A DNA stretch of 64,000 nucleotides, from assembly GCA_046566045.1 (NCBI GenBank), contig JBKHXL010000066.1, positions 26,985-90,984 on the forward strand. The letters run 5' to 3'. A program made the position numbers and the translations under genes. The notes under the pieces are model-generated. The model saw nothing but the letters and a program-made list of their open reading frames with translations. It was not told the DNA's origin and searched no databases. This document shows, one piece after another, positions 14,036 to 45,988 of the stretch; the first letter of the stretch is position 1; the number at the start of each line of letters is the position of its first letter. The DNA comes from Candidatus Limnocylindria bacterium (GTDB lineage: Bacteria; Chloroflexota; Limnocylindria; Limnocylindrales; CSP1-4).

Positions 14036-14488
14036 ATGCCATTCGAGCTGGAGGACCGCATGACCATCACCACCGATCGCCGGACGGCGCTGCTCGCCGC
14101 GACCCCGTTGTTCGCGGCCGTCGATCCCGACGGCCTCGAGCGCATCGCGGCGCGGACGGTCGACGTCGACTTCCCGAGCGGCCACGTCATCGCCCGCCAG
14201 GGCGAGATCGGGACCGGCTTCTTCCTCGTCGTCAGCGGCCAGGTCCGTGTGGTGCGCGGGGGCGAGACCGTGGCCACGCTGGGACCCGGTGAGTTCTTCG
14301 GCGAGCTGTCGATCCTCGACGGCAAGCCCCGGACCGCCCAGGTGGTGGCCGCCGAGCCGACCGTCTGCCTCGCCCTCGCCTCGTGGGACTTCGAGGCGAT
14401 CGTGGCGGAGCAGCCGGCCGTCGCCCTGGCCGTGCTGCGCGGCCTGGCCACCCGCCTGCGCTCCCTGACGGAGGCGCACCACCACTGA
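14036..14488 (+). CDS. stand-alone cyclic-nucleotide-binding (CNB) domain protein, ~142-150 aa
   Basis: Canonical cassette GEFFGELSILDGKPRTAQVVA. An alternative ATG lies at 14060. Confidence 0.85.
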   Translation: MPFELEDRMTITTDRRTALLAATPLFAAVDPDGLERIAARTVDVDFPSGHVIARQGEIGTGFFLVVSGQVRVVRGGETVATLGPGEFFGELSILDGKPRTAQVVAAEPTVCLALASWDFEAIVAEQPAVALAVLRGLATRLRSLTEAHHH

Positions 14489-14510
14489 CCCGGAGGCCGA
14501 GGAGCACGCC

Positions 14511-31570: not shown

Positions 31571-33271
31571 TCAGGCGGGGGTCGCGACCCAGGTCGGCAG
31601 CTCGCGGGCCAGCGTGGCCAGCGGCAGGGATCCATGGCCCAGCACCTGGTCGTGGAACTCGCGCAGGTCGAACGCGGCCCCGTCGCGCTCGGTGATCTGG
31701 CGGCGGAGGGCCTCGATCTGGCGCTGGCCGAGCTTGTAGGTCAGGGCCTGGCCGGGCCAGCAGATGTAGCGGTCGGTCTCGATGACCGCGTCGGTCTCGG
31801 ACAGGCCGGCGCCGAGCAGGAAGTCGATCGAGCGCTGGCGCTCCCAGCGCAGGGCGTGCATGCCGGTGTCGACCACGAGCCGCGCAGCCCGCCAGGCCTG
31901 CGCATCGAGCATGCCGAGCCGCTCGCCCTCGTCGCGGTACAGGCCCATCTCGTCCGCGAGGCGCTCGCTGTAGAGGCCCCAGCCCTCCACGTAGGCGCCA
32001 CCGACCATCCGCGCGCCGAGGCGGCGGAAGCGGTTGAGGCGCTCGTTCTCCATCTCCAGGGTGATCTGGAAGTGGTGGCCTGGAGCCGCCTCGTGGTACG
32101 TCGTCGAGGCGAGCTTCGAGTACAGCCGGCTGGGGAGGTCGTAGCCGTTGGCGTAGTAGATCCCGTCGCGCTGGCCGTCGCCCGACGGCGGGTAGTAGTA
32201 CGCGAACGGAGCGTCCTTCTCCTTGTACGACTCGACCGCGCGGACCTCGCAGCCGGCGCGCGGCAGCCGCCCGAAGAAGCGCGGCGCGGCGGCCATCGCC
32301 CGCTCGATGTCCTCCGTCGCCCGGGCGATCAGCTCGTCCTTCGTGCTGGGGTGGTTGGCCGGGTCCGCGTCGAGTCGGGCCCGGAACGCCGCAACGTGAT
32401 CCCCGAAGCCCGCCTGGCGCGCGACCTCGCGGCGCTCCTCGTCGATCGACTCGAGCTCCTCCAGGCCGATCCGGTGGATGGCCTCGGGCTCGAGCTCGAG
32501 CGTCGTCCAGCTCCGGATCGCGGTCCGGTACAGCGCGTCGCCGGCCGGCGCGGACCAGAGGCCCGGCTCCTCGCGGCTGGCATGGCGGTACTCGCCGCGC
32601 AGGGTGTCGAGGAAGGCGCGATCGGCCGGGTACACGACATCGCGCACGATCTCGCGCACGATCTCGCGGTCCGCCTCCGACGCCCCGATGAGGCTGCCCG
32701 GGATGATCGCGTCCTCGATCGGGATGGCGAGCATCCGCTCGATCTGGGCGATCGTCCGCTCGGTCACGACCGTCGGCGCGGTGAGGCCCGTGGACAGCGC
32801 CTCGCGCAGGGTCCCCTCGTGCGCGGCCATGAACGCCGGGTACGCGTGCAGCCGAGCGATGAACGCCTCGAGCCGCTCCGGCGTGTCGACCGGCTGGAAC
32901 TGGGTCATCTGCGGCATCAGGTGCTGCGGCCCGCCCATCTGGTCGACGACGCGCAGCTGGTGGAAGCCCTGGTCGTCCTCCTCCATGTGCAGTTCCGCGA
33001 TGACCTGCAGCATGTCGCGCGTGATGCGGTCCTCGGTCGACAGGCCGTCGACCGGGATGGCGGCCGCCTCGGCCGCGGTGCGCGCCATCAGCGCCCGGAC
33101 CCGGGCCCGACCCGTGGGCGAGGGGTCCTCCAGCTGGTCCGCCCAGCGGTCATCGCCGTAGAACGTGGCCGTCGTGGGATTGGCCTCCAGGATCCCCTCC
33201 CAGAAGCGATCGGCGAGCGCGTTGACGGCGGCGCCCGGATCGTCCGGGCGGGCCTCGAGCGGATCGGACAT
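31571..33271 (-). CDS. DUF885-family protein
   Basis: The HEAAPGHHFQ motif and the overall ~565-aa length are typical of DUF885. Confidence 0.8.
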   Translation of the reverse strand: MSDPLEARPDDPGAAVNALADRFWEGILEANPTTATFYGDDRWADQLEDPSPTGRARVRALMARTAAEAAAIPVDGLSTEDRITRDMLQVIAELHMEEDDQGFHQLRVVDQMGGPQHLMPQMTQFQPVDTPERLEAFIARLHAYPAFMAAHEGTLREALSTGLTAPTVVTERTIAQIERMLAIPIEDAIIPGSLIGASEADREIVREIVRDVVYPADRAFLDTLRGEYRHASREEPGLWSAPAGDALYRTAIRSWTTLELEPEAIHRIGLEELESIDEERREVARQAGFGDHVAAFRARLDADPANHPSTKDELIARATEDIERAMAAAPRFFGRLPRAGCEVRAVESYKEKDAPFAYYYPPSGDGQRDGIYYANGYDLPSRLYSKLASTTYHEAAPGHHFQITLEMENERLNRFRRLGARMVGGAYVEGWGLYSERLADEMGLYRDEGERLGMLDAQAWRAARLVVDTGMHALRWERQRSIDFLLGAGLSETDAVIETDRYICWPGQALTYKLGQRQIEALRRQITERDGAAFDLREFHDQVLGHGSLPLATLARELPTWVATPA

Positions 33272-33358
33272 GCGTGGAGTGGTCTCCCCAGGTGGCGCGG
33301 TGGACCGCGGCCAGCGGACGTCGCGAGCCACGGTCGACCGGGCGACCGTCTCGGGGCG

Positions 33359-36220
33359 CTAGGGTACCGCGGGACCACTGCCGCCGCCGAACAGCGGCAT
33401 CTGCTCCCCGCTGCGCTCCACCAGCGGATCGAGCCCGAGCAGCGGCTCGAGCGCGGCCAGGTCGGGCGGGTCCATGGCCAGGAACGTGCGCAGGTGGTCC
33501 CACTTGATGACGTTCCATCCGCCGCCGTCCATGGCGGCGCGGAGCAGCGGCGAGCGCTCGAGCTTGTGGCGGACCAGCTCGGTCCGCTCCGGGGCGATGG
33601 CCAGGAACCGGACGAGGCGGTCGTTCGGCCCGAGTCGCGCATGGCGGCGCAGGAGCGTCTCCCCGAGGATCGCCGTCCACTCGACCTCGAACAGGAGCGC
33701 GACCTTGCCGCGCACGTACCAGATGACGTCGACCTCGGCGAGGTCGTCGACCGGTCGAGCGATGCTCCCCAGGTAGGCCTGCCGCTCGCGCTCGTCGAGC
33801 AGGTCGCCGAGCGTGCCGCGGCCGTGGCGGCGGCCCTGCTCCCGCTCGCCGATCCACACGCGCATGCCGAGACGGTGCCCGGCGTCGACCAGCCGGGCGA
33901 TCAGCTCGGCGTGCTCCTGGCTGCGTCGCAGCAGGTCGTCCGCCGTGGCCAGTCGGTCCGCGCTGCCCGTCCGGCTCCGGTAGCTGGCCAGGCAGGCCCG
34001 GACCAGCGTCTCGTCGGGCAGGTCGTGGCCGGTGTACAGCGTGGCGATCCGCTCGAAGAAGGCGGCCTCGTTCAGCGGCCCGCCGGTCGACAGGAGCGAG
34101 AAGACCGACCACTCGACCCGGTCGGCCAGGGGCGGCGCGGCCGTCTCCTGGTCCGCCTGGTCGCCGAGCCACCAGCGGCCGGGTTCGATCTCGCGCAGGC
34201 GGACCTGTCCCGGCCGCGAGAACTCGTCGCGGATCAGCCGGACGAGGCGCTCGACCGGGTCCGGCCGGCCCGCCGCGTCCACCCCGCTCGATGCCACCGT
34301 GCCGGCGATCGCGGAACCGGAGCCCACGGCCCGGGTCGTGCCGCGCGCCGGACCGGATCGAGCGGGGCCATCGGCTCCGACGTCCGACCCGGGGTCGGCG
34401 GCGCGGCCCGCATCGGAGCTGGGCTCCGCGCCGGACCGGTCGTCGCGTGCGGCGGCTCCCGCGTCGGCAGGGTCGCCGGCGTCGGTCGTGGCCGGCGCGG
34501 ACATCGACCCGACCGCCAGGCGACGAAGGTGGCCCGACCGGTCGAGGGCGACGAGCACCTCGCCGAACAGCCGCTCGAAGCGGGCCGGCTCGCCGCGGGC
34601 CCGCAGCGTCTCGACCGCGGCCTCGGTCACGATGCGGCGCGCCTCGTACTCGGAGAACGGCCGCCGGTCGAACCGCTCGGGTGGGGCGAACAGGCCCGGG
34701 CCCGGCACGAGGTCCGGATCGCCCGGACCGTCGGCGACGGGCGGCAGGCCGACATTCGCGCGGGTCCGCGGACCGGGCGGCAGGGCCGCCCCCGGCGGGA
34801 TCGCCTCGACCACGCTGGGTGCGTCGTCGCCCGGCTCGGCCAGCCGGGCCGCGACCAGCCGGAAGCCGGCCGATGCGGCGCCGATGACGACCGCCGCGAG
34901 CGCGTCCGGACCGCCGTCCACGAACTGGACGAGCCGCCCGTCGCGAGCCATCGCCGGCGCGACCGCAGTCAGGGACCGGCCGAGGGCGACGGCCTGCCAC
35001 GACCACGGGCTGCGCAGGGCCGGGCTGGCCAACGCGTCCACCGGCAGCAGCCCGGCCGCCTCGCGGCCCAGGGTCCAGGCGGTCCCATGGTAGGCCAGGG
35101 CCAGGCGGTCGAGGTCGGGGCGGAGGGCGGGCTGGCCCAGCACGAGCCGGACCCGCGGATCGCCGGCTCGACCGTCGCCGATGGTCCGGATGGCCGACGG
35201 GCTGGCGTTGGCCAGGACGGCCGTCGCGGTCCCCTCGCCGAGCGCGCGCAGATCCTCCCCGAGGCGGGCCTGGACCGGTCCGACGAGGCCGCCCTCCAGA
35301 CGCTGGACGAATCCCCGCACCAGCCGGAAGCCGTCCTCGAAGGCGCTCCACGGGTTGCGCTCGTGCCACACGCCGCCAGCCGGCAGACGGACGTGCCCGC
35401 CCTGGACGCGCAGGGTCGCGACCCGGCCCGTGCCGCTCGCCAGCCGGGTCGACGGCAGCAGCGCGTGAAGCATGGCCAGGCGCAGGGCGGCCAGGACCGG
35501 GGCCGCGCGCAGGTCGGTCTCGATGCGCTCCATGATCCCGACCAGGGCCACGAGCTGGCGGGGCACGTGCAGGTCGAGCAGCTCGTCCACCAGGCGTGGC
35601 GCGCCGTCCACCGTCGGGAATCGATCGCGGGCCCAGGCCAGCGCCTCGTCGTAGCCGGTCCGCGCCACGGCCCGCGCGACGTCCTCCGGGTCGAGCGGCG
35701 CGTCGCGCAGCTCCGCCCCGCCGCGCTGGTCGCGGCACACGACGCAGCGGTAGTGACGCCGGGTCGGGACGGCCGCGCCGGCGGCGTCCGGGTCCCCGCC
35801 CTTCTCGGACGGGAGCGCCCACGTGACGGCGTCCGCCACGAGCATGCGGCCACACGTCGCGCAACGGGTGGCGTACAGGTCCCCGAGCGAGACCTTCAGG
35901 CTGGACTCGCCGCGGGGCGACGCGGCCATGCCCTGGAACGCCGCGTCGAGATGGCGCACGTCCGGCGGACGCAGCACGACCTCCGCGAGCATCCGCGTCA
36001 GCGGGCTGGACTCGATCGAGACGGCGCGGCGCTGGCGGTCCACCGCGCCGCGGGCGACCCAGCCCCCGCGCCCGGCGAGGTCGACGACGACGTCGCCGGG
36101 TCCCGTGTGCGCCTCGACGCGGGCGGCGATGAGCGCGGGCGCCGGCGGTGGCGCCAGGCGATCGAACGCGGGCAGGATGTACCCGCTGTCAGCCCGCGTG
36201 GATCCGCTCCGGCCGCTCAT
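33359..36220 (-). CDS. 953-aa multidomain protein: degenerate DNA-methyltransferase-like N-terminal module with Zn-ribbon, disordered linker, C-terminal PD-(D/E)xK-like module (function unknown)
   Basis: HTGPGDVVVDLAGRGGWVARGAV...RRAVSIESSP resembles the motif-I end of N6A/N4C methyltransferases. Ribbon CATCGR...YRCVVCRD. C-terminus HAELIARL...EVDVIWYVRGKVALLFEVEWT. Its composition is far more protein-like than the overlapping shadow ORFs. Confidence 0.7.
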   Translation of the reverse strand: MSGRSGSTRADSGYILPAFDRLAPPPAPALIAARVEAHTGPGDVVVDLAGRGGWVARGAVDRQRRAVSIESSPLTRMLAEVVLRPPDVRHLDAAFQGMAASPRGESSLKVSLGDLYATRCATCGRMLVADAVTWALPSEKGGDPDAAGAAVPTRRHYRCVVCRDQRGGAELRDAPLDPEDVARAVARTGYDEALAWARDRFPTVDGAPRLVDELLDLHVPRQLVALVGIMERIETDLRAAPVLAALRLAMLHALLPSTRLASGTGRVATLRVQGGHVRLPAGGVWHERNPWSAFEDGFRLVRGFVQRLEGGLVGPVQARLGEDLRALGEGTATAVLANASPSAIRTIGDGRAGDPRVRLVLGQPALRPDLDRLALAYHGTAWTLGREAAGLLPVDALASPALRSPWSWQAVALGRSLTAVAPAMARDGRLVQFVDGGPDALAAVVIGAASAGFRLVAARLAEPGDDAPSVVEAIPPGAALPPGPRTRANVGLPPVADGPGDPDLVPGPGLFAPPERFDRRPFSEYEARRIVTEAAVETLRARGEPARFERLFGEVLVALDRSGHLRRLAVGSMSAPATTDAGDPADAGAAARDDRSGAEPSSDAGRAADPGSDVGADGPARSGPARGTTRAVGSGSAIAGTVASSGVDAAGRPDPVERLVRLIRDEFSRPGQVRLREIEPGRWWLGDQADQETAAPPLADRVEWSVFSLLSTGGPLNEAAFFERIATLYTGHDLPDETLVRACLASYRSRTGSADRLATADDLLRRSQEHAELIARLVDAGHRLGMRVWIGEREQGRRHGRGTLGDLLDERERQAYLGSIARPVDDLAEVDVIWYVRGKVALLFEVEWTAILGETLLRRHARLGPNDRLVRFLAIAPERTELVRHKLERSPLLRAAMDGGGWNVIKWDHLRTFLAMDPPDLAALEPLLGLDPLVERSGEQMPLFGGGSGPAVP

Positions 36221-36259
36221 CGCACGGCGGATGCTAGCCCACCGCGGGCCCTGGCCGGG

Positions 36260-37117
36260 TCACGCCTCGTCGAGGTCGTCGTCCTCGGCCTCGAAGGCCT
36301 CGTCGGTCGTGGACTCCGGCGGCAGGACGCGGTCGAGGTCCTCGATCTCCTCGTCCTCCTCGTCGTCCTCGAGGTCCTCTTCCAGCTCCATCTCCTCGCG
36401 CACGAGGGTGCCCTTGGTGTACGGGCGCAGGTCGGTCGACTTGGCGGCGGTCGGGAAACTGACCTTGCCGTAGTTGGACGGGTCCTGGAAGATCTCGCGG
36501 ATGATCAGGCGGACGTCCTTGTCGCCGAGGCTGGTGACGCCGGCCGCGTACTTGTTGCCGTCGGCGATGAGCTTGAGCAGGCGCGCCGCGACGCGCGGCT
36601 CGACCACGCCGATGCGCACGCCGTTGCTGATCGCGATCAGGCGACCCCGTTCGGGCGTCAGCTCGACGTAGTCGCCCGGGTTGACCTGGGCGAGCTCCTT
36701 GGGCGAGGCGAGGTCGGTCAGGAAGGCGAACCCGGTCTTGCCGGTCTCCTCGACGAAGATGCTGACCGGGGCCTTGCTGCCCTCCATCGCCGGCACGGTC
36801 TTCTTGCCGGCGGCGTTGAGCAGCATCTTGAGCCGGTCGATGTTGCGCTCGGCGATGCGGTTGGTCGGATCGAGGGCGAGCGCGGTCTGGTAGTGCTCGC
36901 GCGCCTCGCCGAGCATGCCCAGCTCCCAGAGCGCCTTGGCCAGGCGGTTCTCCGCCTCGACGTCGGGCCCGAGCTCCAGCAGCCGGCGGTTGGTGGCGGC
37001 CGCCTCGTCCCACTGCGCGGCGGTGGCCTGGGCGATCGCCTGCTCGGCGAGCTGCCGCTTGGTGCGGATGAGGTTGACGGGACTCTGGGCGTTCGTCTCG
37101 ACGTCGGGGAAGGTCAC
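36260..37117 (-). CDS. TPR-repeat protein with central small beta-barrel (HIRAN-like?) segment and poly-acidic C-terminal tail
   Basis: GTG start follows AAAGGAA. TPR-like EAENRLAKALWELGMLGEAREHYQTALALDP. NPGDYVELTPERGRLIAISNGVRIGVVEPRVAARLLKLIADG. 27 of the last 46 residues are Asp/Glu. Confidence 0.75.
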   Translation of the reverse strand: MTFPDVETNAQSPVNLIRTKRQLAEQAIAQATAAQWDEAAATNRRLLELGPDVEAENRLAKALWELGMLGEAREHYQTALALDPTNRIAERNIDRLKMLLNAAGKKTVPAMEGSKAPVSIFVEETGKTGFAFLTDLASPKELAQVNPGDYVELTPERGRLIAISNGVRIGVVEPRVAARLLKLIADGNKYAAGVTSLGDKDVRLIIREIFQDPSNYGKVSFPTAAKSTDLRPYTKGTLVREEMELEEDLEDDEEDEEIEDLDRVLPPESTTDEAFEAEDDDLDEA

Positions 37118-37532
37118 GGGTGATCGGTTCCTTTCGGGGCGGGCGGCGTCTCGCGGTCGCGTCTGTCAGGCACGCGTCGACGCGGGACGGGATCCGGGTT
37201 CGCGAACGGTCTTTCTAGCACGGGTCGGCCCGCCGGTCAAACGCCGTGGCGGTCCGGTATCCGCATCGTGGCCGTCCGCCACGCCCTGGGCTCGAACTCG
37301 GCCGTTCCTACCAAACGCCAGCCGGGGTGGCCGTAGCCGGCGACCCTTGGCCATGCGCCACGCACCGCGACGTCTGGCAGGACGCGATCAGCGACCGGAG
37401 CGTGCGCATCCTCGGTCGCCCGGTCGGTCCTCGTCCAGCGCCACCACCAGTGGCGTATGGGCGGGACCGCAGGCGGTCGATCGGTCGCCGGCGCGAGACC
37501 TCGATCTCCGCGACAGGCGCGCGCCGCCGCGC

Positions 37533-38387
37533 TCAACCGCGCAGGAGCAGGTTCCAGGCGATGACCGCGACGCCGAGGATCCCGAGCAGCGCCGTCTGCC
37601 AGATCCAGCGCGCTTCGCGGCGCCGGGCCGGGGTCGCCCCGTGGACGGCGTCCCACAGGTAGAAGGCGAGGGTCAGCAGGGCGGGGCCCAGCAGGCGCGG
37701 GATCTCCATCGCCCGGACGGCCGCCGCGCCGATGGCGATGGCGGCCCCGTAGGTCGCCGCCGACCACAGCACGTCACGGACGCTGACGAGCCTGAGCGCC
37801 GCCACCCGGAAGCCGAGCAGCGCCGCGATCACCGCGTCCCCGGCGGCGAGCGCGATCAGGTCCGACTCGCGCAGCGGACCGCCGGCGGCACCCTCCGCGC
37901 CCGGCTGGGCAAGGCCCCCGAGGACGGTCGCGCCGACCCCAACGAAGCCCAGGAAGCCGACCAGCAGGACGGTGACCAGGACCGCCGCCCGGGCGTCGTC
38001 GTCGATGGGCGCGTCGTCGGCGCTGGCCAGGCGGGCCTCCAGGGCGAGGCTGCGCCCGACGATGACGTAGGTCAGGAGCAGGGCCGGGGCGAGCCACAGC
38101 CCGAACGGCACGAGCCGGATGGCGCCGACACAGGCGATGGCGGCCACGGACGGGATGATCAGGGACTCGACCGGGACGCCCAGCGTCCGGCCGCTGCGAG
38201 CGGCCTCGTCGCCGAGCACCTGGAGCACCCCGAGAAGGGTGGCGCCAAGGAGCAGGATCGCGACCAGCCAGACGACCGGTGGCTCGACCAGGCGCGACAG
38301 CCCGACCACGACCACGGCCGCCAGGGCCAGGTCGCGACGGGCCAGGCGATCGATGCTCATCGGGCCGATGGTAGGCGAGGCGCTCAT
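37533..38387 (-). CDS. hypothetical polytopic membrane protein (284 aa)
   Basis: Several hydrophobic helices. ATG at 38387 overlaps the polX stop (ATGA). Confidence 0.65.
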   Translation of the reverse strand: MSASPTIGPMSIDRLARRDLALAAVVVVGLSRLVEPPVVWLVAILLLGATLLGVLQVLGDEAARSGRTLGVPVESLIIPSVAAIACVGAIRLVPFGLWLAPALLLTYVIVGRSLALEARLASADDAPIDDDARAAVLVTVLLVGFLGFVGVGATVLGGLAQPGAEGAAGGPLRESDLIALAAGDAVIAALLGFRVAALRLVSVRDVLWSAATYGAAIAIGAAAVRAMEIPRLLGPALLTLAFYLWDAVHGATPARRREARWIWQTALLGILGVAVIAWNLLLRG

Positions 38388-40294
38388 ACCCGGTCCGGTT
38401 TGCCGGCCACCCACGCGAGCAGATCGGCCCGCGACCGGGTGTTGAGGACGCGGTCGGGCCCGACCCACGCCCGGCGGGCCTGGCTGACGCCCCACTCGAG
38501 GTGCTCGAACTCGCCGGTCTTGTGCGCGTCGGAATCGATCGACAGCAGGCAGCCGACCTCGACCGCGCGCCGGGCGCGCTCGACGGCGAGGTCCAGGCGA
38601 TGGGGCGAGCCGTTCATCTCGAGGACCGTGCCGGTCCGCGCGGCCTCCGCGTAGACAAGGTCCCAGTCCAGATCCAGGTCATCGCGGCCGTTGATCATCC
38701 GGCCCGACGGGTGGGCGATGAGGTCCACGTGCGGGCTGCGGATGCCGTTGAGGGTCCGCCGGGTCAGCTCCGCTCGCGTCTGGCGCCGGGACACGTGGAC
38801 GGACGCGACGACGACGTCGAAGCGAGCCAGCAGATCGTCGTCGTAGTCGAGCGTGCCGTCGGCCCGGATCTCCAGCTCGCAGCCGTGCAGCAGCCGGAAG
38901 CCCTCGGGCGGGGTCTCCGGCGGCGCGGTCCCGGCGGCCTCCTCCGCCGCGAAGCGGGCGTTGAGCTCGGCGATCACGGAGCGCTGGAGCTCGACCCGGT
39001 CCGGGGTGAGACCGCGGGCGATGGCCAGACTCTGCGAGTGGTCGGTCAGGACCTGGTAGGCGTGGCCGCGACGGCGGGCCGTCTCGGCCATGACCTCGAT
39101 CGAGTGGACCCCGTCCGACCAGTCGGAGTGGCTGTGCAGGTCGCCGCGCAGGTCGGCCAGCGTGACCAGCGGCGGCAGGGTGCCGGCGAGGGCCGCCTCG
39201 ATCTCGCCGCGATCCTCGCGCAGCTCCGGCTCGATGAAGGGCAGCCCCAGGAACGCGTAGGCCTCCGCTTCCGTGGCGAACGTCCGCAGCTCCGCGTCCG
39301 CGCCGGTCAGCGGCTGGCCCGCTGCGTCGATGCGCAGGAAGCCCTTCTCCGACAGGCTCCAGCCCATGTCCCGGGCGCGCTCGCGCAGCCGGACGTTGTG
39401 CTCCTTGGAGCCGGTGAAGTGGATGCGATACGTGCCGGCCGCACCGGGCGGCACGATCATGAGGTCCACCTGGGGTCCGCGCAGCAGGGCGATGGCCGCC
39501 TTGTGGCCGCCGCGGTTGATGACCGTGTCCACCACACCCAGGGTGGTGAAGCGCTCGATCAGCGCGGGACCGTCGGACGTCTCGGCCAGCAGGTCCAGGT
39601 CGCCGATCGATTCGCGTCGCCGCCGGAACGAGCCCGCCGGCTCGATCCAGGTCGTGCCGGGCGTGTCGGCGAGGGCCGCGATGATCCCGTCGAGGTGCTC
39701 GCGCGCTCGATGCAGGAGCAGCCGGTCGGGGCGCGCCTCCAGCCGGGCGATGCCCTCGATGATGAGCTGCTCGGTCTTGGCCGACAGCCCCCTGATCGCC
39801 CGCAGCTGACCCGCCTCGGCGGCGTGGCGCAGGTCCTCCATCGAGTCGATCCCGAGCTCGGCGTGGATGACCCGGACCGTCCTGGGCCCGAGGCCCGGCA
39901 GGCGCAGCAGGTCCACCAGCCCGGGCGGCACCTCGGCGGCGAGTCGATCGTAGAAGGCCAGACGCCCGGTCCTGGCCAGCTCGGCGATCTTGTCGCTGAT
40001 GGCCGGACCGACGCCCGGGATGCGCGGCGGCGTGCCCGCCCGGTAGGCGGCCACGAGATCGATCGGCGAGCGGCCGATGGTGTCGGCCGCCCGGTGATAG
40101 GCCACCGTCTTGAACACCAGCTCGCCCTTGATCTCGAGCATGTCGCCGATGTCGTGGAAGATCCGGGCGAGGTCCCCGTTGGTCAGCGGCCGGTCACCAC
40201 GGCCGAGGGCGTCGGGGTCGGCGTCGGGGAGATCGTGGGCGTCGACCGGCGCCGTGTCGGCCGGGTCGTCCGGAGCGTCGGACGGCGTGTTCAC
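38384..40294 (-). CDS. polX: DNA polymerase/3'-5' exonuclease PolX (Pol-beta-like core + PHP domain)
   Basis: HhH regions (IPGVGPAISDKI, LPGLGPRTVRVI), nucleotidyltransferase GSFRRRRESIGDLDLL, and PHP HSHSDWSDG. GTG start overlaps the upstream stop (GTGA). Confidence 0.9.
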   Translation of the reverse strand: MNTPSDAPDDPADTAPVDAHDLPDADPDALGRGDRPLTNGDLARIFHDIGDMLEIKGELVFKTVAYHRAADTIGRSPIDLVAAYRAGTPPRIPGVGPAISDKIAELARTGRLAFYDRLAAEVPPGLVDLLRLPGLGPRTVRVIHAELGIDSMEDLRHAAEAGQLRAIRGLSAKTEQLIIEGIARLEARPDRLLLHRAREHLDGIIAALADTPGTTWIEPAGSFRRRRESIGDLDLLAETSDGPALIERFTTLGVVDTVINRGGHKAAIALLRGPQVDLMIVPPGAAGTYRIHFTGSKEHNVRLRERARDMGWSLSEKGFLRIDAAGQPLTGADAELRTFATEAEAYAFLGLPFIEPELREDRGEIEAALAGTLPPLVTLADLRGDLHSHSDWSDGVHSIEVMAETARRRGHAYQVLTDHSQSLAIARGLTPDRVELQRSVIAELNARFAAEEAAGTAPPETPPEGFRLLHGCELEIRADGTLDYDDDLLARFDVVVASVHVSRRQTRAELTRRTLNGIRSPHVDLIAHPSGRMINGRDDLDLDWDLVYAEAARTGTVLEMNGSPHRLDLAVERARRAVEVGCLLSIDSDAHKTGEFEHLEWGVSQARRAWVGPDRVLNTRSRADLLAWVAGKPDRV

Positions 40295-41562
40295 GCCGCG
40301 ACGACGCGGTCGCGACCGCCGCGCTTGGCTCGGTACATGGCTCGGTCCGCGGTGGCGATGAGGTCCTCGATGGGCGCGTCCGGCTCGGTCGCGACGGCGA
40401 CCCCGACCGACACGCTCACGCCATCCACGCCGTGCTCGCGCAGATCCAGGTTGCGCACGGCGGCGCGGATGCGCTCGCCGACCTCGATGGCGACGCCCGG
40501 ATCCGGGTTGCGCAGCAGGACCACGAACTCCTCCCCGCCGAAGCGCGCCGGGACGTCGTCCTCGCGCACGGCCGTGACGATCGCCGCGGCCACGGCGCGC
40601 AGGACCTCGTCACCCACGCCGTGTCCATGGGTGTCGTTGAGCACCTTGAACCTGTCGATGTCGACCATCAGGATCCCGACCGCGTCGCCGGACCGGCGGC
40701 GCCTGGCCGACAGCGAGACGTACTCGTCGAAGTAGCGCCGGTTGGGCAGGCCGGTCAGGGCATCGGTCGACGCCCTGGCCTCCGCGTCGAGGACCGAGTA
40801 CGCGCGGGCCAGCGCGGCCGAGGCCTCGGAGGCGGCAGCGTCCAGCATCCGCTGGGTCGCCTCCGGCCAGGGTCCCGTCCGCCGCGAGAGGACGATCGCG
40901 CCGATGGCGCCCCCAGCGGCCGTGAGCGGCGCCGCGATGGGATGCATCAGGCCGTAGACCGTGCGCAGGCGCCGGGCGATGCGGGCGGGCGAGTCCTCGC
41001 CGCCGGCCGCCTCCAGGTCATCGAGGGGGAGCAGCGTCGTGCTGTCCGGGACTCCGGGTCGGGAACTGACCAGGCGCGCCTCCAGGACGCTGGCGTCCGG
41101 TCGTCGACGGACGAGCACGATGTGGTCGGCGCCGGTCACGTCGCCCAACTCCTCGACGATGGCCGAGACGATGGCGTCCGGCGACACCGATCGTGACAGG
41201 CCGGACAGGATCCGTGCGAACGAGGCCGCCTCACCGGCCCGACGCCGCTCGACGTCGGCCATGCCCGTGGCGTACACGCGCACGGCGACGCCGGCCACGA
41301 GGAGGAGGAGCAGGAGGATCCAGTCGAGCGGCCGGCCGCCGTCGTCGGCGACCGACAGGAGCACGATGCCGGCGATGCCGATCGCTGCCGCGAGGAAGAC
41401 CTGCCAGGCCCGGCGGATGCGCTGATCCGACGGTGTCCGAGGTTCGGGCGGTCGCTGATGCGGTGCGGTCACGTCGGAAGTGAAGGATGGCGGTCCGGAC
41501 GGTCCACGTCCACTCCCCGGAGGGGTACGGTCGGCGATCCGGGACCAGTACTTCTGGGTCAT
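40291..41562 (-). CDS. membrane-anchored diguanylate cyclase (TM - GAF-like - GGDEF)
   Basis: Active site RFGGEEF, with the I-site REDD five residues upstream. Two N-terminal TM helices. Confidence 0.9.
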   Translation of the reverse strand: MTQKYWSRIADRTPPGSGRGPSGPPSFTSDVTAPHQRPPEPRTPSDQRIRRAWQVFLAAAIGIAGIVLLSVADDGGRPLDWILLLLLLVAGVAVRVYATGMADVERRRAGEAASFARILSGLSRSVSPDAIVSAIVEELGDVTGADHIVLVRRRPDASVLEARLVSSRPGVPDSTTLLPLDDLEAAGGEDSPARIARRLRTVYGLMHPIAAPLTAAGGAIGAIVLSRRTGPWPEATQRMLDAAASEASAALARAYSVLDAEARASTDALTGLPNRRYFDEYVSLSARRRRSGDAVGILMVDIDRFKVLNDTHGHGVGDEVLRAVAAAIVTAVREDDVPARFGGEEFVVLLRNPDPGVAIEVGERIRAAVRNLDLREHGVDGVSVSVGVAVATEPDAPIEDLIATADRAMYRAKRGGRDRVVAA

Positions 41563-41578
41563 CCGGCGGGCCGGCCGC

Positions 41579-41644
41579 GGGACCGGAGGCGGCGTGGGCC
41601 GGTGGCGAGGGCCGGTAGCGTGGGACCGGAGGCGTGGGACCGGA
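41579..41644. repeat. three copies of GGGACCGGA in the spacer between the two diguanylate cyclase genes
   Basis: Copies at 41579-41587, 41622-41630 and 41636-41644. The last two belong to a 14-nt-period tandem duplication of the 13-nt unit GCGTGGGACCGGA (copies at 41618-41630 and 41632-41644, separated by a single G). Confidence 0.6.
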
Positions 41645-41685
41645 CGCGCGCGGGATCGGAGGCGAGCCCCTCGCCCGGGGATCGA

Positions 41686-43854
41686 TCAGGCGGCCGCGCC
41701 GTCCGATGCGGCTGCGGCCTCGTGGCCGCCGTCACGCTTGACCCGGTAGAGCGCCGCGTCAGCTGCGGCGATGAGGTCCGTCGCCGTCCGGGCATCGGCC
41801 GGGAAGGTCGCGACGCCGATGGACCCGGCCAGCGGCACGGGGCCGCGCTGTTCCCCGACGAAGGGCTGATCGCGGAAGGCCCCGAGGATCCGCTGGGCCG
41901 CCGTGCGCGCCTCCTCGGAGTCGGTGTCGGGCAGGATGACCGCGAACTCGTCGCCGCCGTAACGCGCCGGGATATCCGACGCGCGCAGGGTCGATCGGAT
42001 GAGCTCGGAGCACCACACCAGGAGGCGGTCGCCGAACAGGTGCCCGAATGTGTCGTTGACCAGCTTGAAGTCGTCGAGGTCGAGCATGAGCAGGCTCAGC
42101 GGTCGCCGTGCGCGCTGGGAGCGCACGACCTCCTCTCCAAGGCGCTCGTGCAGGAATCGGTGGTTGTAGAAGCCGGTCAGCGGGTCCCGGTCGGCGAGCT
42201 TGCGCGCGTCCTCGTACAGGCGAGCGTTCTCGAGCGCCATGGCGGCCTCGTTGGCCATCGTCCGGGCAAGGTCCAGTTGCTCGCCGTCCCAGCGTCGCGG
42301 GCCGCGCGAGAACAGCTCGACGAGACCGATCGACTGGCCCTTGGCGACGAGCGGCAGCATCGCCAGCATCTGGTTGCCGTCGCGCGTGAGGAGCTCGACC
42401 TCGGCAGCGTCCGCACGCGGGTCGAGGGCATCGATGATGACCGTCTCCTGGCGCTCCAGCGCGCGCAGGGTCTCCGGGAAGCCCTCGACCAGGAAGTACG
42501 GCTCCAGCTTGTCGATCCCCAGGGCGGGGTAGTAGCCCAGTGACTCGACCCGGCCGGTCGGCCGGTCCCAGTAGCTGATGGCGCATTCGTCGGCATGCAA
42601 CGCCATGGCGAGATGGCCCGCGATCAGGTTCGCGACCTGGCGAGGATCCAGGCTCCCGGACAGGTCGCTCGACATGGCCAGCAGGCGGCGCAGCTCACCC
42701 GCAAGTTCCCGTGAGCGGGTCAGCAGTCGGGCCGACTCGAGCGCGGTGGCCGCCTGGTCGGCGAGGATCGTCAGGAGCTGCAGGTCGACCTCGGTGAAGC
42801 CGTCGAGCCCAAGGCGCGACAGGGTGATCACGCCGACGGTCACACCGTCGTAGGCCATGGGGACCACCAGCATCGACTCATCGATGTCGTCGGTGCCGGC
42901 CATCGGCTGGCCGCGCGGGTCGGCGGCGGCGTCGTTGACCAGGAGCGGCTCACCATGGAGCGCCACCCAACCGGTGAATCCCTCGCCGACCCGGCAGCGC
43001 AGCAGCGCCGGATCGACATGCTCGAAGGCGCCGACGCGTCCCTCGACGGCGATCGGCACGACCTCGTCGGGTGGCTGGATCAGGTGCACCCGCGCGTTGT
43101 GGTACTCGATGATGCGGCGCGCCTCCTCCACGACGGTCCGACCGACACCCTCCACCGAGCCGGCCCGCGTCAGGCGTGCCGAGGCGGCCTGGAGGGTGGC
43201 CAGCTGGGTGGCGCGCTGCTCGGTCTGGGCGAACAGCTCCGCGTTGGTCAGGGCGATCGCGACGTGGTTCGCCAGCGTGGCCATGAAGGCCACGTCGCCT
43301 CCGCTCCAGGCGCGCGGGACGGCGGTGCAGGCTTTGAGTGCACCGATCACCTGTCCGTCGTGGATGAGCGGCGCCGCGATCGCGCCCGCCCAGTGGACCG
43401 ACGGCTCGTAGCGGTCCATGCCGTGGCTCGGGTCCGTTCGGGCGTCGTTCCAGGTCGTGACCCGGCCGTTGCGGACGACCTGGCCGGCCCAGCCCTCGTC
43501 GAGGACGAGTTCGGGCAGGCGGGCGGCCGTGGCGTCATCGATCCCGGCCCACGCTGCGACGCGCAGCCGACCGCCATCGAGGACGCGGATGGTGACGTTG
43601 TCCGCGTGCAGGCCCCAGCAGGTCTCGTCGACGATCATGCGCAGGAGCGCGCCCCGATCGTGCGACGCCGCCAGGCGCTCGGCGATGCCCAGGACCGTGT
43701 CGAGGCGGTCGGCCAGTTCCGCCTCGAGCGACCGGGGCGGCGCAGCGGCCGAGCCGCCAAGGAGTCGGCGGAAGAGCGCCGGCCGCGCTGACCGGGCAGC
43801 CGGGGACGACCGCCCCGCGGGGGGCGTCGAGGTGGGGCCGTTCCGCGCGCTCAT
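41686..43854 (-). CDS. multi-GAF diguanylate cyclase (GAF x3 - GGDEF)
   Basis: RYGGDEF with I-site RASD. Repeated GAF-like segments. Start is MSARNGPT at 43854 (uncertain). Confidence 0.9.
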   Translation of the reverse strand: MSARNGPTSTPPAGRSSPAARSARPALFRRLLGGSAAAPPRSLEAELADRLDTVLGIAERLAASHDRGALLRMIVDETCWGLHADNVTIRVLDGGRLRVAAWAGIDDATAARLPELVLDEGWAGQVVRNGRVTTWNDARTDPSHGMDRYEPSVHWAGAIAAPLIHDGQVIGALKACTAVPRAWSGGDVAFMATLANHVAIALTNAELFAQTEQRATQLATLQAASARLTRAGSVEGVGRTVVEEARRIIEYHNARVHLIQPPDEVVPIAVEGRVGAFEHVDPALLRCRVGEGFTGWVALHGEPLLVNDAAADPRGQPMAGTDDIDESMLVVPMAYDGVTVGVITLSRLGLDGFTEVDLQLLTILADQAATALESARLLTRSRELAGELRRLLAMSSDLSGSLDPRQVANLIAGHLAMALHADECAISYWDRPTGRVESLGYYPALGIDKLEPYFLVEGFPETLRALERQETVIIDALDPRADAAEVELLTRDGNQMLAMLPLVAKGQSIGLVELFSRGPRRWDGEQLDLARTMANEAAMALENARLYEDARKLADRDPLTGFYNHRFLHERLGEEVVRSQRARRPLSLLMLDLDDFKLVNDTFGHLFGDRLLVWCSELIRSTLRASDIPARYGGDEFAVILPDTDSEEARTAAQRILGAFRDQPFVGEQRGPVPLAGSIGVATFPADARTATDLIAAADAALYRVKRDGGHEAAAASDGAAA

Positions 43855-43990
43855 CACCGGCCATCGTCCCACCCGGACCGCCGTCGGAGCGCCCGCCAGC
43901 GGTACCGGTCGGGGAGGTACGGAGGTCCGGTGTGACGAGCCACGCGACCGGCGCAGGTACCATGGCGCGGGACACCGAGAGGGAGGGACG

Positions 43991-45988
43991 ATGACCGACG
44001 AGCCGCGCGACCCAGACGCGGTCGCGACCAGGACGATGCGCTGGCGGTTCGCGACACCAGGCTGGCTGATCACGATCCTGGACATCATCGCGTCGCTCGT
44101 GGCTGCCATCGCGGCGCTGGCGATCCGCTTCGACACGACCGACCTGACCACGGCCGTGGCCCCCTACCTGCCGGCGGTCCTGCTGCCGGTCCTGATCCGG
44201 CCGTTGGTCCTCGCGGCGCTCGGCCTTCATCGGCGGGAGTGGCGCTACGCGTCCGTGCGCGACATGGTCGACCTCGTGCGCGCGGTCATCATCGGCTCCG
44301 CCATCATCGCGGCCGTCTTCGTCGTCATGTCGGCCGTCGACGCCCCCGGGACCAATCCGTTCCCGCGCTCGTTCTTCCTGCTCGAGCCCGTGCTCTTCCT
44401 GGCCCTGACCGCGAGCATCCGGATCGTGGCCCGCAGCACTCTCGAGCGCTCCGCGGGTCGCGAGACCAAGCACGCGGAGGTCCGAACGCTGGTGTACGGC
44501 GCCGGGAACGCCGGGTCCATCGTGGCCAGGATGGCCACGCCGGCCGGCCTGCGAGGCATGCGCATCGTCGGCTTCGTCGACGATGACCGCCGCAAGCACG
44601 GTTCGCGACTCCTTGGCCATCGGGTCTACGGCGGCCTGGACGACCTCGAGTCCGCGGTCGCGCGGTCGGGCGCCGAGCAGCTGCTGATCGCCATCCCATC
44701 CGCGGCAGCCAGGCCGGTGCGTCGCGCCGTGGAGGCAGCGCGGGACCTGGGGCTGACCGTCAAGATCGTGCCGCCGCTGCGCGACATGGTGACCGGGCAC
44801 TTCCAGGTCACCGGGATCCGCTCGGTCAACGTCGAGGACCTGCTGCGCCGGGCCCCGATCACGATCGACTACGAGGCGGTCGCGGGCTCCATCAACGGTG
44901 CGTCGGTCGTGGTGACCGGCGGCGGCGGATCCGTGGGCAGCGAGCTCGTCCGGCAGATCCTGAGCCTCGGGCCACGCGTGCTCACGGTCGTGGAGCACAA
45001 CGAGTGGGCACTCTGGAGCGTCGAGCGCGACATCGCCGCCATGCGTCGCGAGGCCGACGGGGTCCACGTGGTCGCAGCACTCGCCGACGTGCGCTCGATG
45101 CATGCCCTGACCGCCGTGCTGCACACGGCCAGACCCGACGTCGTCTTCCACGCGGCTGCGCTCAAGCACGTCCCGTATGTCGAGTCCTACCCGTCCGAGG
45201 GCGTGCTGACGAACGTGCTCGGCACGCGCAACGTGCTGCGCGCCTGTGAGGACATGGGCATCGCGCGCTTCACGCTCATCTCGACGGACAAGGCGGTCGA
45301 GCCGGTCAGCGTGATGGGCGCGACGAAACGGTTGGCCGAGCAGCTCACGGTCGCGGCCGGTCATCGCACGCAGCGCGCCTACGCCGCCGTGCGCTTCGGC
45401 AACGTGCTCGGGTCGAGTGGCAGCGTCGTGCCGCTCCTGCAGCGCCAGCTCGACGATGGCCTGCCCCTGACCATCACCAATCCGGATGCGACCCGCTACT
45501 TCATGACCATCGCCGAGGCCGTCAGCCTGATCCTGGAAGCCGCCGCCGATCCCTCGCCGGGCGACGTGCATGTCCTGGACATGGGTGAGCCGGTCAAGAT
45601 CATGGACCTTGCCCGCGACCTGATCAGGCTCAACGGCATGAACATCGACGATGTGCCCATCAACGTGACCGGCCTGCGACCCGGCGAGCGCCTGCACGAG
45701 AAGCTCTTCTACGATGACGAGGTCGCCGAGCGGACCCGACACCCCGGCATCCTTCGAGCGGCCCGGAGCAGTTCCGCGGCCATCGAGGCGCAGATCGAGG
45801 CCTTCGTGGACGAGGTGGTGGTCGCTGCCACCGCGCACGATGATGCCGCGGTACGTGCGCTGCTGCGCCGGTCCGCCGCCCTTACCGGGATGACCAGCGA
45901 GGCCGCGCTGTCGACCTTCGGCGCCATCGCCGCGGCGGAGGCTCAGGCGCTGATCGCCGGCGCGCCGCACGGACGGCCGAACGCCTGA
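43991..45988 (+). CDS. membrane-bound polysaccharide biosynthesis protein CapD/WbpM/PglF type (UDP-HexNAc 4,6-dehydratase-like)
   Basis: GGGAGGGA RBS. N-terminal TM helices. Rossmann motifs YGAGNAG and VVVTGGGGSVGSEL. VMGATKRLAE. Confidence 0.9.
   Translation: MTDEPRDPDAVATRTMRWRFATPGWLITILDIIASLVAAIAALAIRFDTTDLTTAVAPYLPAVLLPVLIRPLVLAALGLHRREWRYASVRDMVDLVRAVIIGSAIIAAVFVVMSAVDAPGTNPFPRSFFLLEPVLFLALTASIRIVARSTLERSAGRETKHAEVRTLVYGAGNAGSIVARMATPAGLRGMRIVGFVDDDRRKHGSRLLGHRVYGGLDDLESAVARSGAEQLLIAIPSAAARPVRRAVEAARDLGLTVKIVPPLRDMVTGHFQVTGIRSVNVEDLLRRAPITIDYEAVAGSINGASVVVTGGGGSVGSELVRQILSLGPRVLTVVEHNEWALWSVERDIAAMRREADGVHVVAALADVRSMHALTAVLHTARPDVVFHAAALKHVPYVESYPSEGVLTNVLGTRNVLRACEDMGIARFTLISTDKAVEPVSVMGATKRLAEQLTVAAGHRTQRAYAAVRFGNVLGSSGSVVPLLQRQLDDGLPLTITNPDATRYFMTIAEAVSLILEAAADPSPGDVHVLDMGEPVKIMDLARDLIRLNGMNIDDVPINVTGLRPGERLHEKLFYDDEVAERTRHPGILRAARSSSAAIEAQIEAFVDEVVVAATAHDDAAVRALLRRSAALTGMTSEAALSTFGAIAAAEAQALIAGAPHGRPNA

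Follow-up and report, generated by a model that had tools for sequence, protein, structure and literature searches.

What is the role of a large bacterial protein that resembles a DNA methyltransferase (MTase) at one end and a nuclease at the other? This question is raised by two genes on the reverse strand of a Candidatus Limnocylindria genome (Chloroflexota; assembly GCA_046566045.1, contig JBKHXL010000066.1, positions 26,985 to 90,984). The window denotes this whole stretch of 64,000 nt, and two of its genes were followed up, at 33359-36220 (gene 2) and 36260-37117 (gene 1). The initial annotation had described them as an orphan two-gene operon that might form an undescribed defence or repair module. 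We propose that gene 2 encodes a domesticated single-chain protein of restriction-modification (R-M) type with a clamp tether, which would act in replication-coupled repair or maintenance and not in phage defence; we give this proposal a slightly better than even chance. The two genes are as follows.

33359..36220, reverse strand: gene 2, open reading frame (ORF) for a 953-aa pseudo-methyltransferase, Zn-ribbon, winged helix-turn-helix (wHTH), NmeDI_C-like and clamp-binding-motif protein
36260..37117, reverse strand: gene 1, ORF for a 285-aa TPR protein

Both ORFs were present where the initial annotation had placed them, and the 39-nt spacing from gene 1 to gene 2 was confirmed. In a window with a G+C content of ~73%, the two genes have a third-codon-position G+C content (GC3) of 0.93-0.96, and hundreds of conserved homologues were found for each. 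Because of this GC3 signature and these homologues, both are considered real genes. An 1829-aa ORF on the forward strand (31634-37123), antisense to the downstream DUF885 gene, gene 2 and gene 1, was rejected as a high-G+C artefact, since it is the sense-strand genes that show conservation and the GC3 signal. Genes 1 and 2 share one reading frame and are split by one TGA stop codon and 36 nt (36221-36262). A split or readthrough gene is ruled out, because the gap differs in other genomes, some of which have intervening genes.

The N-terminal half of the gene 2 protein was assigned from distant relatives and consists of the following parts.

35873..36172, reverse strand: pseudo-MTase N-lobe, residues 17-116, with PF01555, PDB-profile and hhalign matches
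36059-36094, reverse strand: motif I relic VVVDLAGRGGW, residues 43-54, with Arg51 in place of the first Gly of GxG
35231..35872, reverse strand: insertion, residues 117-330, made up of a Zn ribbon, a helical bundle and a beta-hairpin; the same insertion is aligned in the methylases P0420 and P0419
35735-35863, reverse strand: four-Cys Zn ribbon (C120, C123, C159, C162)
34781..35230, reverse strand: pseudo-MTase C-lobe, residues 331-480, aligned to P0420, P0419 and 2zie/M.RsrI
35117-35146, reverse strand: motif IV relic LVLGQPALRP, residues 359-368; PP kept, catalytic D/N/S and aromatic lost

Searches with gene 2, as whole protein or in segments, gave no match in Pfam and NCBIfam, PHROGs likewise gave none, and a PDB profile search with a Limnocylindria-only alignment returned nothing relevant. 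In distant homologues of gene 2, residues 20-80 matched the motif I end of PF01555 (positions ~160-215); with 33.6 bits, one member (P0350) exceeded the gathering threshold (26.7 bits). A profile of distant members matched beta-class DNA MTases in the PDB (2zie, 3.6e-7; M.RsrI, 1.5e-5), followed by MboIIA, N4-cytosine (N4C) MTases, CcrM and PvuII, with motif I aligned and motif IV and the next helix-strand aligned more weakly. For hhalign, residue counts and AlphaFold2 (AF2) modelling, we used an alignment of 52 diverse gene 2 homologues from across the classes. Its profile aligned residues 43-457 with P0420, a DUF1156/COG1743 'adenine-specific DNA methylase' (probability 96.3%, E 1.5e-9), and residues 17-564 with the C-terminal MTase module of P0419 (99.5%, E 2.4e-22). 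Active motifs are intact in both (DPFCGGGS and TDPPYY in P0420; DPFCGSGM and TDPPF in P0419), and both have in common with gene 2 the Zn ribbon and a helical insertion with a 'TPRQ/N' arginine. DUF1156 (PF06634) had no Pfam match in gene 2, and the hhalign alignment starts at P0420 residue 159, past its DUF1156 (residues 14-68). P0419 is a 1293-aa fusion from a JGI metagenome, composed of an XRE helix-turn-helix, a D12-class MTase and a Zn-ribbon PF01555 MTase; as the closest active relative in the hhalign comparison, its module is a candidate for the ancestral active form.

The AF2 model built from the 52-sequence alignment (mean predicted local distance difference test score [pLDDT] 83.3, predicted template modelling score 0.82) shows a Rossmann core interrupted by the Zn-ribbon/helical insertion. 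A first model from a shallow 34-sequence alignment had a pLDDT of 57 and meaningless Foldseek matches, and it was discarded. With Foldseek, the best BFVD match of the retained model was a Pandoravirus N4-cytosine DNA methyltransferase (E 4.9e-5, probability 1.0, 506 columns), and nearly all of the top 50 PDB matches were S-adenosylmethionine (SAM, AdoMet) methyltransferases, including E. coli Dam over ~450 columns, none of them significant. By profile comparison, gene 2 residues 17-564 are homologous to the Zn-ribbon COG1743-type DNA N6-adenine/N4C methyltransferases, with a class-I Rossmann MTase core. The likeness to COG1743 methylases with a Zn ribbon, which the initial annotation had read from the letters, is thus borne out by PF01555, PDB profiles, hhalign and Foldseek, and the strings on which it was based are in place (HTGPGD at residue 38, CATCGR at 120, YRCVVCRD at 157 and VLGQPALRPD at 360).

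Aligned to its active relatives, gene 2 reads DLAGRGGW at motif I and GQPALRP at motif IV. Among the 52 homologues, 33 have R and 16 have Q at position 51, which is the first Gly of GxG in the active relatives; the motif II acid is E70 in gene 2. The motif IV relic aligns with TDPPYY of P0420, TDPPF of P0419 and SPPY/DPPY of 2zie/M.RsrI; across the 52 homologues, position 363 (catalytic D/N/S) is Q/A/S/R and position 366 is variable and never aromatic, so that two prolines alone persist. Gene 2 and its family lack the FxGxG AdoMet-binding loop, and (D/N/S)PP(Y/F/W) is lost family-wide. The degraded motif I and the lost DPPY had been noted for this one genome and prove to be general in the family. 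Outside these motifs, the four cysteines of the Zn ribbon are invariant (52/52), as are R200 and R221 ('TPRQ/N') of the helical bundle (52/52); in the beta-hairpin E287-x-N289-x-W291, E287 and W291 are found in 52/52 and N289 in 51/52. Because GxG and (D/N/S)PP(Y/F) are both degraded, the module should be a pseudo-methyltransferase, which is predicted to bind DNA without methylating it.

At the opposite end of the protein lies a short motif that was absent from the initial annotation.

33389..33403, reverse strand: QMPLF, residues 940-944, predicted beta-sliding-clamp-binding motif in a disordered tail

The C-terminus of the family has the consensus Q-[LMI]-x-[LM]-F, which reads QMPLF here and QLPLF, QIPLF, QLSLF, QLQLF and the like elsewhere. 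Between the motif and the C-terminus there are 0-10 residues, and the tail is disordered in the AF2 model (pLDDT <50 from residue 944). Among complete C-termini in the fetched loci, 193 of 202 (~95%) had Qxx[LM][FLIMWV] within the last 16 aa, and three of the nine that failed had the motif slightly further upstream. The strict motif was found in the tail of 132/147 family proteins (mean 907 aa), with 0 occurrences elsewhere in them. P0419 has no clamp motif. The bacterial beta-clamp-binding consensus is QL[S/D]LF or QxxLF (PMC12309361). QMPLF has the marks of such a motif, as it matches the consensus, lies in a terminal disordered segment and is conserved among orthologues. From its identity, position and conservation, we infer that the gene 2 protein would be recruited by DNA-loaded DnaN. 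The presence of this motif favours repair or replication over defence.

The nuclease-like part of gene 2 precedes the tail.

33470..33940, reverse strand: NmeDI_C / PD-(D/E)xK-like domain, residues 761-917, assigned from precomputed PF27126, PADLOC and AF2 topology

The gene 2 protein and most of its homologues carry a precomputed Pfam annotation as NmeDI_C (PF27126). R.NmeDI is a 351-aa type II enzyme that cleaves on both sides of RCCGGY (PMC2095814). The PADLOC REase_II model PDLC03534 weakly matched gene 2 residues 769-878 with its positions 177-292 of 351 (E 3.5e-4), and the MTase_II match was also weak (E 0.03). In the AF2 model, the domain has an alpha-beta-beta-beta-alpha-beta core (helix 763-783, strands 787-790, 832-836 and 840-847, helix 853-859, strand 869-875) with a pLDDT of ~90. 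MmcB-like folds in BFVD were matched non-significantly (template modelling score 0.41-0.46, probability 0.72-0.95, E 0.17-0.28). A nuclease fold of the C-terminal domain is supported by the model. The PD-(D/E)xK-like C-terminus proposed in the initial annotation is in accord with the PF27126 annotation, the REase_II match, the AF2 core and the weak MmcB-like matches; its HAELIARL and EVDVIWY/D-x13-ExE elements were found, HAELIARL at residue 770 and EVDVIWY at 829.

The candidate catalytic residues are D831, where the second strand begins, E845/E847 in the third strand and E769 in the first helix. D831 is present in 51/52 homologues, R879 and K886 are conserved, and within Limnocylindria E769, D831, E845 and E847 are all invariant or nearly so. 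The sequence here is D-x13-ExE without Lys at the canonical position. E845/E847 are replaced in ~40% of diverse family members, and the third-strand motif is EVEWT in Limnocylindria and Ktedonobacteria-type proteins and VLTTK, VVLDS or VVRWR elsewhere. Judging from these residues, catalysis is a plausible prediction for the Limnocylindria branch and cannot be the common denominator of the whole gene 2 family. A homologue next to recA in Anaerolineae (locus L126) has a degenerate nuclease-like motif, with FLLQDG replacing FEVEWT, and keeps a C-terminal QLRLF.

Between the pseudo-methyltransferase lobes and the nuclease-like domain, four further segments were distinguished.

34652..34780, reverse strand: loop, residues 481-523, conserved in Limnocylindria; pLDDT <50 at 484-516
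34505..34651, reverse strand: three-helix wHTH-like module, residues 524-572 (AF2 helices 524-542, 548-561 and 564-570)
34268..34504, reverse strand: disordered Ala/Gly/Ser/Asp-rich linker, residues 573-651, from composition and pLDDT <50 at 584-648
33941..34267, reverse strand: helical / winged-helix-like region, residues 652-760, from AF2 secondary structure

The three-helix module contains the motif R542-G-E544-P545, which is invariant in the 52 homologues; in the winged-helix-like region, E703 is found in 51/52 and Y747 is invariant. The linker is variable or absent in other classes. A linker of this composition had been described as ~90 aa long; it is present, with a length of roughly 80 aa. 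The loop at residues 481-523 (PPGPRTRANVGLP...GLFAPPERF) is near-invariant in Limnocylindria, with many invariant columns in the Limnocylindria alignment, and other classes lack it. Possibly it is a short linear interaction motif specific to this lineage.

The distribution of gene 2 was examined by an exhaustive profile search, which gave 1312 cluster representatives at E<=1e-3. The term "orphan" is therefore wrong in the sense of ORFan. The closest homologues (56-82% identity) are named Candidatus Limnocylindrales or Chloroflexota. Two scans of one-genome-per-species collections with different pattern sets found a gene 2 relative in 380 and 543 species genomes, so that gene 2 occurs in at least 543 Limnocylindria species genomes and is near-universal in sampled Limnocylindria. 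A third scan, seeded with distant 830-890-aa relatives, found homologues in metagenome-assembled genomes labelled Ktedonobacteria, Anaerolineae, Caldilineae and Thermoflexales. Tblastn of gene 2 against 72,556 plasmids gave no significant match (best E 0.5, at chance level), and against 50,697 phage records it gave no match. Gene 2 is a core, chromosomal, vertically inherited Chloroflexota family, and neither an ORFan nor an island gene. Its homologues are called 'hypothetical protein' in the sources, a literature search on PF27126, DUF1156, COG1743 and Limnocylindria found no paper describing the family, and the family is uncharacterised. Six contigs from metagenome-assembled genomes with other labels carry a Chloroflexota-type gene 2 homologue (L008, L071, L075, L124, L170 and L173; labelled Saccharimonadales, Actinomycetota, Verrucomicrobiia, Omnitrophota, Sulfotelmatobacter and Dormiibacterota). 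All but L124 also carry parts of the Limnocylindria gene block described below (TPR and others) at high identity, and the six probably reflect mis-binning or mislabelling in public genomes.

Within Limnocylindria, gene 2 belongs to a block of PolX, a hydrophobic protein, the TPR protein, gene 2 and DUF885, which is syntenic in essentially all loci. In the window, the other members of this block besides gene 1 are the following.

31571..33331, reverse strand: DUF885 gene, 28 nt downstream of gene 2 and co-oriented with it (Pfam DUF885, E 1.2e-153)
37533-38495 as listed, reverse strand: hydrophobic 283-320-aa protein that follows PolX; no Pfam hit to its translation
38384-40294, reverse strand: PolX, upstream context (Pfam HHH_8/HHH_5/DNA_pol_B_thumb/PHP)

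The synteny extends to deep branches in which gene 2 is 39-50% and the TPR protein 68-80% identical, and nearly all Limnocylindria loci of sufficient extent have DUF885 downstream of gene 2. A "two-gene operon" is not established, since the co-oriented DUF885 gene starts 28 nt after gene 2. On the upstream side, the distance of 415 nt to a PolX operon given earlier is that between gene 1 and the gene that follows PolX. The gap between the TPR gene and gene 2 is usually 60-200 nt, and 1-4 kb in a sizeable minority of loci; an opposite-strand DinB_2 gene sits in the gap at locus L001, and another clade has two or three opposite-strand genes there. No homologue of TPR, PolX or DUF885 was found within 7 kb of gene 2 homologues in 55 loci from other classes (0/55). 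The claim that TPR gene and gene 2 are conserved neighbours thus holds within Limnocylindria, as part of a wider syntenic block, and fails for other classes.

Gene 1 itself has three parts.

36818-37060, reverse strand: TPR region, gene 1 residues ~20-100 (Pfam TPR_1/TPR_2)
36452-36769, reverse strand: central domain, gene 1 residues 117-222, no family assigned
36263-36400, reverse strand: acidic tail, gene 1 residues 240-285, from D/E composition

Pfam TPR_2 (29 bits) and TPR_1 (28.4 bits) matched residues 54-86 above the cut-off, and TPR matches in the PDB profile search reached 6.7e-33; the TPR-like helices of the initial annotation are real. Its acidic tail was also recovered, with 27 of the last 46 residues being D/E (59%), and the tail contains the fixed motif DLDRVLPPE(S/A)TTDEAFE. 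Outside the TPR part, gene 1 had no match in Pfam or in the PDB profile search. The HIRAN resemblance suggested for the centre is not statistically supported, as there was no Pfam match to HIRAN (PF08797) at E<=10 and no HIRAN among the PDB profile matches. As a candidate, the HIRAN domain of HLTF was aligned by hhalign to the claimed segment with a probability of 0.4% (E 0.15) and was rejected. Gene 1 homologues are 87-93% identical where gene 2 is ~68% identical. We regard gene 1 as a protein in its own right, extremely conserved and specific to Limnocylindria, with TPRs and an acidic tail; a partnership with gene 2, in the sense of a functional link, is possible.

The near neighbours of gene 2 are PolX, the membrane protein, TPR, DUF885, DAO and an aminotransferase, and the rest of the window consists of metabolic and housekeeping genes. 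No helicase, DUF499 or active-methylase partner was found among the neighbours, in agreement with the initial annotation, which had recognised no partner active methylase or helicase. No mobile-element signs were found near gene 2 and no tRNA in the window; a scan of the locus for sigma-70 promoters and terminators found nothing, and an Rfam scan gave a single match at chance level. The product of 37533-38495 (reverse strand) looks like a multi-pass membrane protein. The ORF as listed overlaps PolX, and translation probably begins only after the PolX stop codon. The hydrophobic protein is kept after PolX in most Limnocylindria at 32-76% identity and was undetected in the deepest branches. Upstream of PolX, the conserved syntenic block includes two GAF-GGDEF diguanylate cyclases in tandem (40291-44151, reverse strand), and a 935-aa adenylate/guanylate cyclase-AAA-TPR protein is encoded elsewhere in the window (14469-17276, forward strand). 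Outside Limnocylindria, recA-recX-rny is divergently adjacent to the gene 2 homologue in 12 Anaerolineae loci (L126-L137, e.g. L126:2475-9268). An HD-domain gene lies directly upstream of the gene 2 homologue in three related genomes with four loci, and at one further locus a gene with OB-fold and HD domains (YhaM-like) has this position (examples of such upstream genes are L220:6208-6828 and L221:5723-6718); the arrangement is not broadly conserved.

According to our proposal, DnaN clamps loaded on DNA, behind forks or at repair patches, would recruit the gene 2 protein via its tail. The pseudo-methylase module would read the DNA, that is, its sequence, a flipped or damaged base or the modification state, and DNA recognition would be retained through the pseudo-methylase, Zn-ribbon and wHTH modules. 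In the Limnocylindria/Ktedonobacteria-type branch, which keeps E769/D831/E845/E847, the nuclease domain might nick or cut; in many Anaerolineae-type members those acids are replaced. Because of this replacement, the family-wide function would be clamp-tethered DNA binding and not cleavage. Two neighbours with a link to repair speak for the proposal, PolX in Limnocylindria and recA-recX-rny at the 12 Anaerolineae loci.

Several points weigh against this proposal. The evidence is computational throughout, and the predicted clamp binding is deduced from the position and conservation of a motif of just five residues. Foldseek against the PDB gave no match with E<0.07 (best E 0.076). No neighbour conserved across classes was found, so that context constrains function little, and the adjacency of PolX and of recA may reflect nothing more than lineage synteny. 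The acid that closes beta2 (E70; D in others) has been kept in part, and some nucleotide binding may be possible. As the beta3 motif varies and has no canonical Lys, nuclease activity appears doubtful even in this branch.

The last point bears on the main rival, in which both enzyme domains are dead and gene 2 is a non-catalytic, clamp-associated DNA-binding scaffold or regulator. We regard this as a serious but distinctly less probable explanation. Such a protein could be, for example, a nucleoid factor or a regulator of the replication cycle to which the clamp would serve as a timing cue, in analogy to Hda, YabA or SeqA, and for this form, too, our expectation stays well short of even. The MTase motifs are dead family-wide, and the beta3 acids are replaced in ~40% of diverse homologues, while D831, R879, the Zn ribbon, RGEP and the clamp motif remain conserved; the L126 homologue has lost FEVEWT yet retains QLRLF. 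However, the (near-)invariance of E769, D831, E845 and E847 in Limnocylindria suggests a retained metal site, and the C-terminal domain keeps the full PD-(D/E)xK core topology in the AF2 model. In a further version, Chloroflexota would use the domesticated R-M enzyme as a clamp-coupled surveillance endonuclease, analogous in function to MutH or NucS/EndoMS without evolutionary relationship. The dead methylase would flip and inspect hemimethylated, mismatched or damaged bases just behind the fork, the NmeDI-like domain would nick and, in Limnocylindria, the TPR protein would regulate; this version is improbable. An addition that does not exclude the other readings is an obligate complex of the TPR protein with gene 2, in which the acidic tail would occupy, as a DNA mimic, the surface with which gene 2 binds DNA. 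Both genes have the same orientation and are closely spaced (39 nt here, usually 60-200 nt elsewhere), their adjacency is class-wide even where gene 2 is 39-50% identical, and the tail (59% D/E) has a conserved linear motif. PolX and DUF885 are, however, kept in the same block, which may be plain synteny; no TPR homologue was found near gene 2 homologues at the 55 loci from other classes, several lineages have one to three opposite-strand genes (1-4 kb) in between, and the two proteins evolve at very different rates (identity ~90% for gene 1 vs ~68% for gene 2). On this evidence, an obligate complex is rather unlikely.

The same domains could also be read as an undescribed anti-phage or anti-plasmid defence module, as the initial annotation had it, in which the dead methylase would recognise foreign or modified DNA and guide the nuclease, under the control of a TPR protein that mimics DNA or binds DNA ends. 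The parts derive from R-M stock, and COG1743-type methylases occur in DISARM-like operons (PMC7641849). The C-terminus is related to the type II REase NmeDI, with the weak PADLOC matches to REase_II and MTase_II. Nevertheless, gene 2 is near-universal in sampled Limnocylindria at a single fixed housekeeping locus, occurs also in other Chloroflexota classes, and had no significant plasmid match and no phage match. It has no helicase, DUF499 or active-methylase partner and no mobile-element signs or tRNA, and defence nucleases are not known to carry a conserved clamp-binding motif. Because of the housekeeping locus, the missing plasmid and phage matches and the missing defence partners, a defence role is very unlikely, and the claimed defence module gives way to a fixed housekeeping block in at least 543 species genomes.

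Known systems offer partial parallels to gene 2. COG1743/DUF1156 methylases and P0419 share with it a Rossmann core, the order of motif I, insertion and motif IV, and the Zn ribbon with the helical insertion. In contrast to them, gene 2 is without DUF1156 and has GxG changed to (R/Q)xx and DPPY to xPPx; its MTase module continues into wHTH and NmeDI_C-like domains and a tail with the clamp-binding motif, and it is core chromosomal without defence partners. With R.NmeDI, it has in common residues ~769-878, which match the C-terminal half of the 351-position REase_II profile and NmeDI_C. It differs in that the match is weak (E 3.5e-4), there is no cognate active methylase, the candidate catalytic residues are not conserved in the family and the domain lies inside a 953-aa protein. 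MmcB-like repair proteins (PD-(D/E)xK) gave the best small-domain fold matches to the C-terminus (E 0.17-0.28), with no sequence match. Type IIG/IIC enzymes (MmeI, BcgI-like) combine a DNA methyltransferase and a PD-(D/E)xK nuclease in a single polypeptide. Gene 2 likewise joins an MTase module and a PD-(D/E)xK-like module; however, its methylase is dead, the MTase comes first and the nuclease last, it has a clamp-binding tail, and its inheritance is vertical across the phylum and not patchy. MutH resembles restriction enzymes, and NucS has a C-terminal clamp-binding peptide. For both NucS/EndoMS and MutH, the likeness to gene 2 is a functional analogy, with no sequence or fold homology shown. 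In mismatch repair, NucS acts as a nuclease, and its catalytic domain is RecB-like (PMC5290159). Unlike NucS and MutH, gene 2 is four times larger, includes a pseudo-methylase reader and has no mismatch-related evidence.

If the proposal of a clamp-tethered, domesticated R-M-type protein is true, an R-M-type enzyme would have been captured for housekeeping DNA metabolism across several Chloroflexota classes, with the methylation chemistry dropped, DNA recognition retained and a replisome-clamp tether gained. Chloroflexota are abundant in soil and freshwater and are mostly uncultivated. Homologues were found in contigs labelled Ktedonobacter and Anaerolinea, genera with cultured members. Proteins of the gene 2 family should be labelled neither DNA methylases nor defence genes. 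The family would represent a new client for the bacterial sliding clamp and would provide a route into replication-coupled repair in Chloroflexota.

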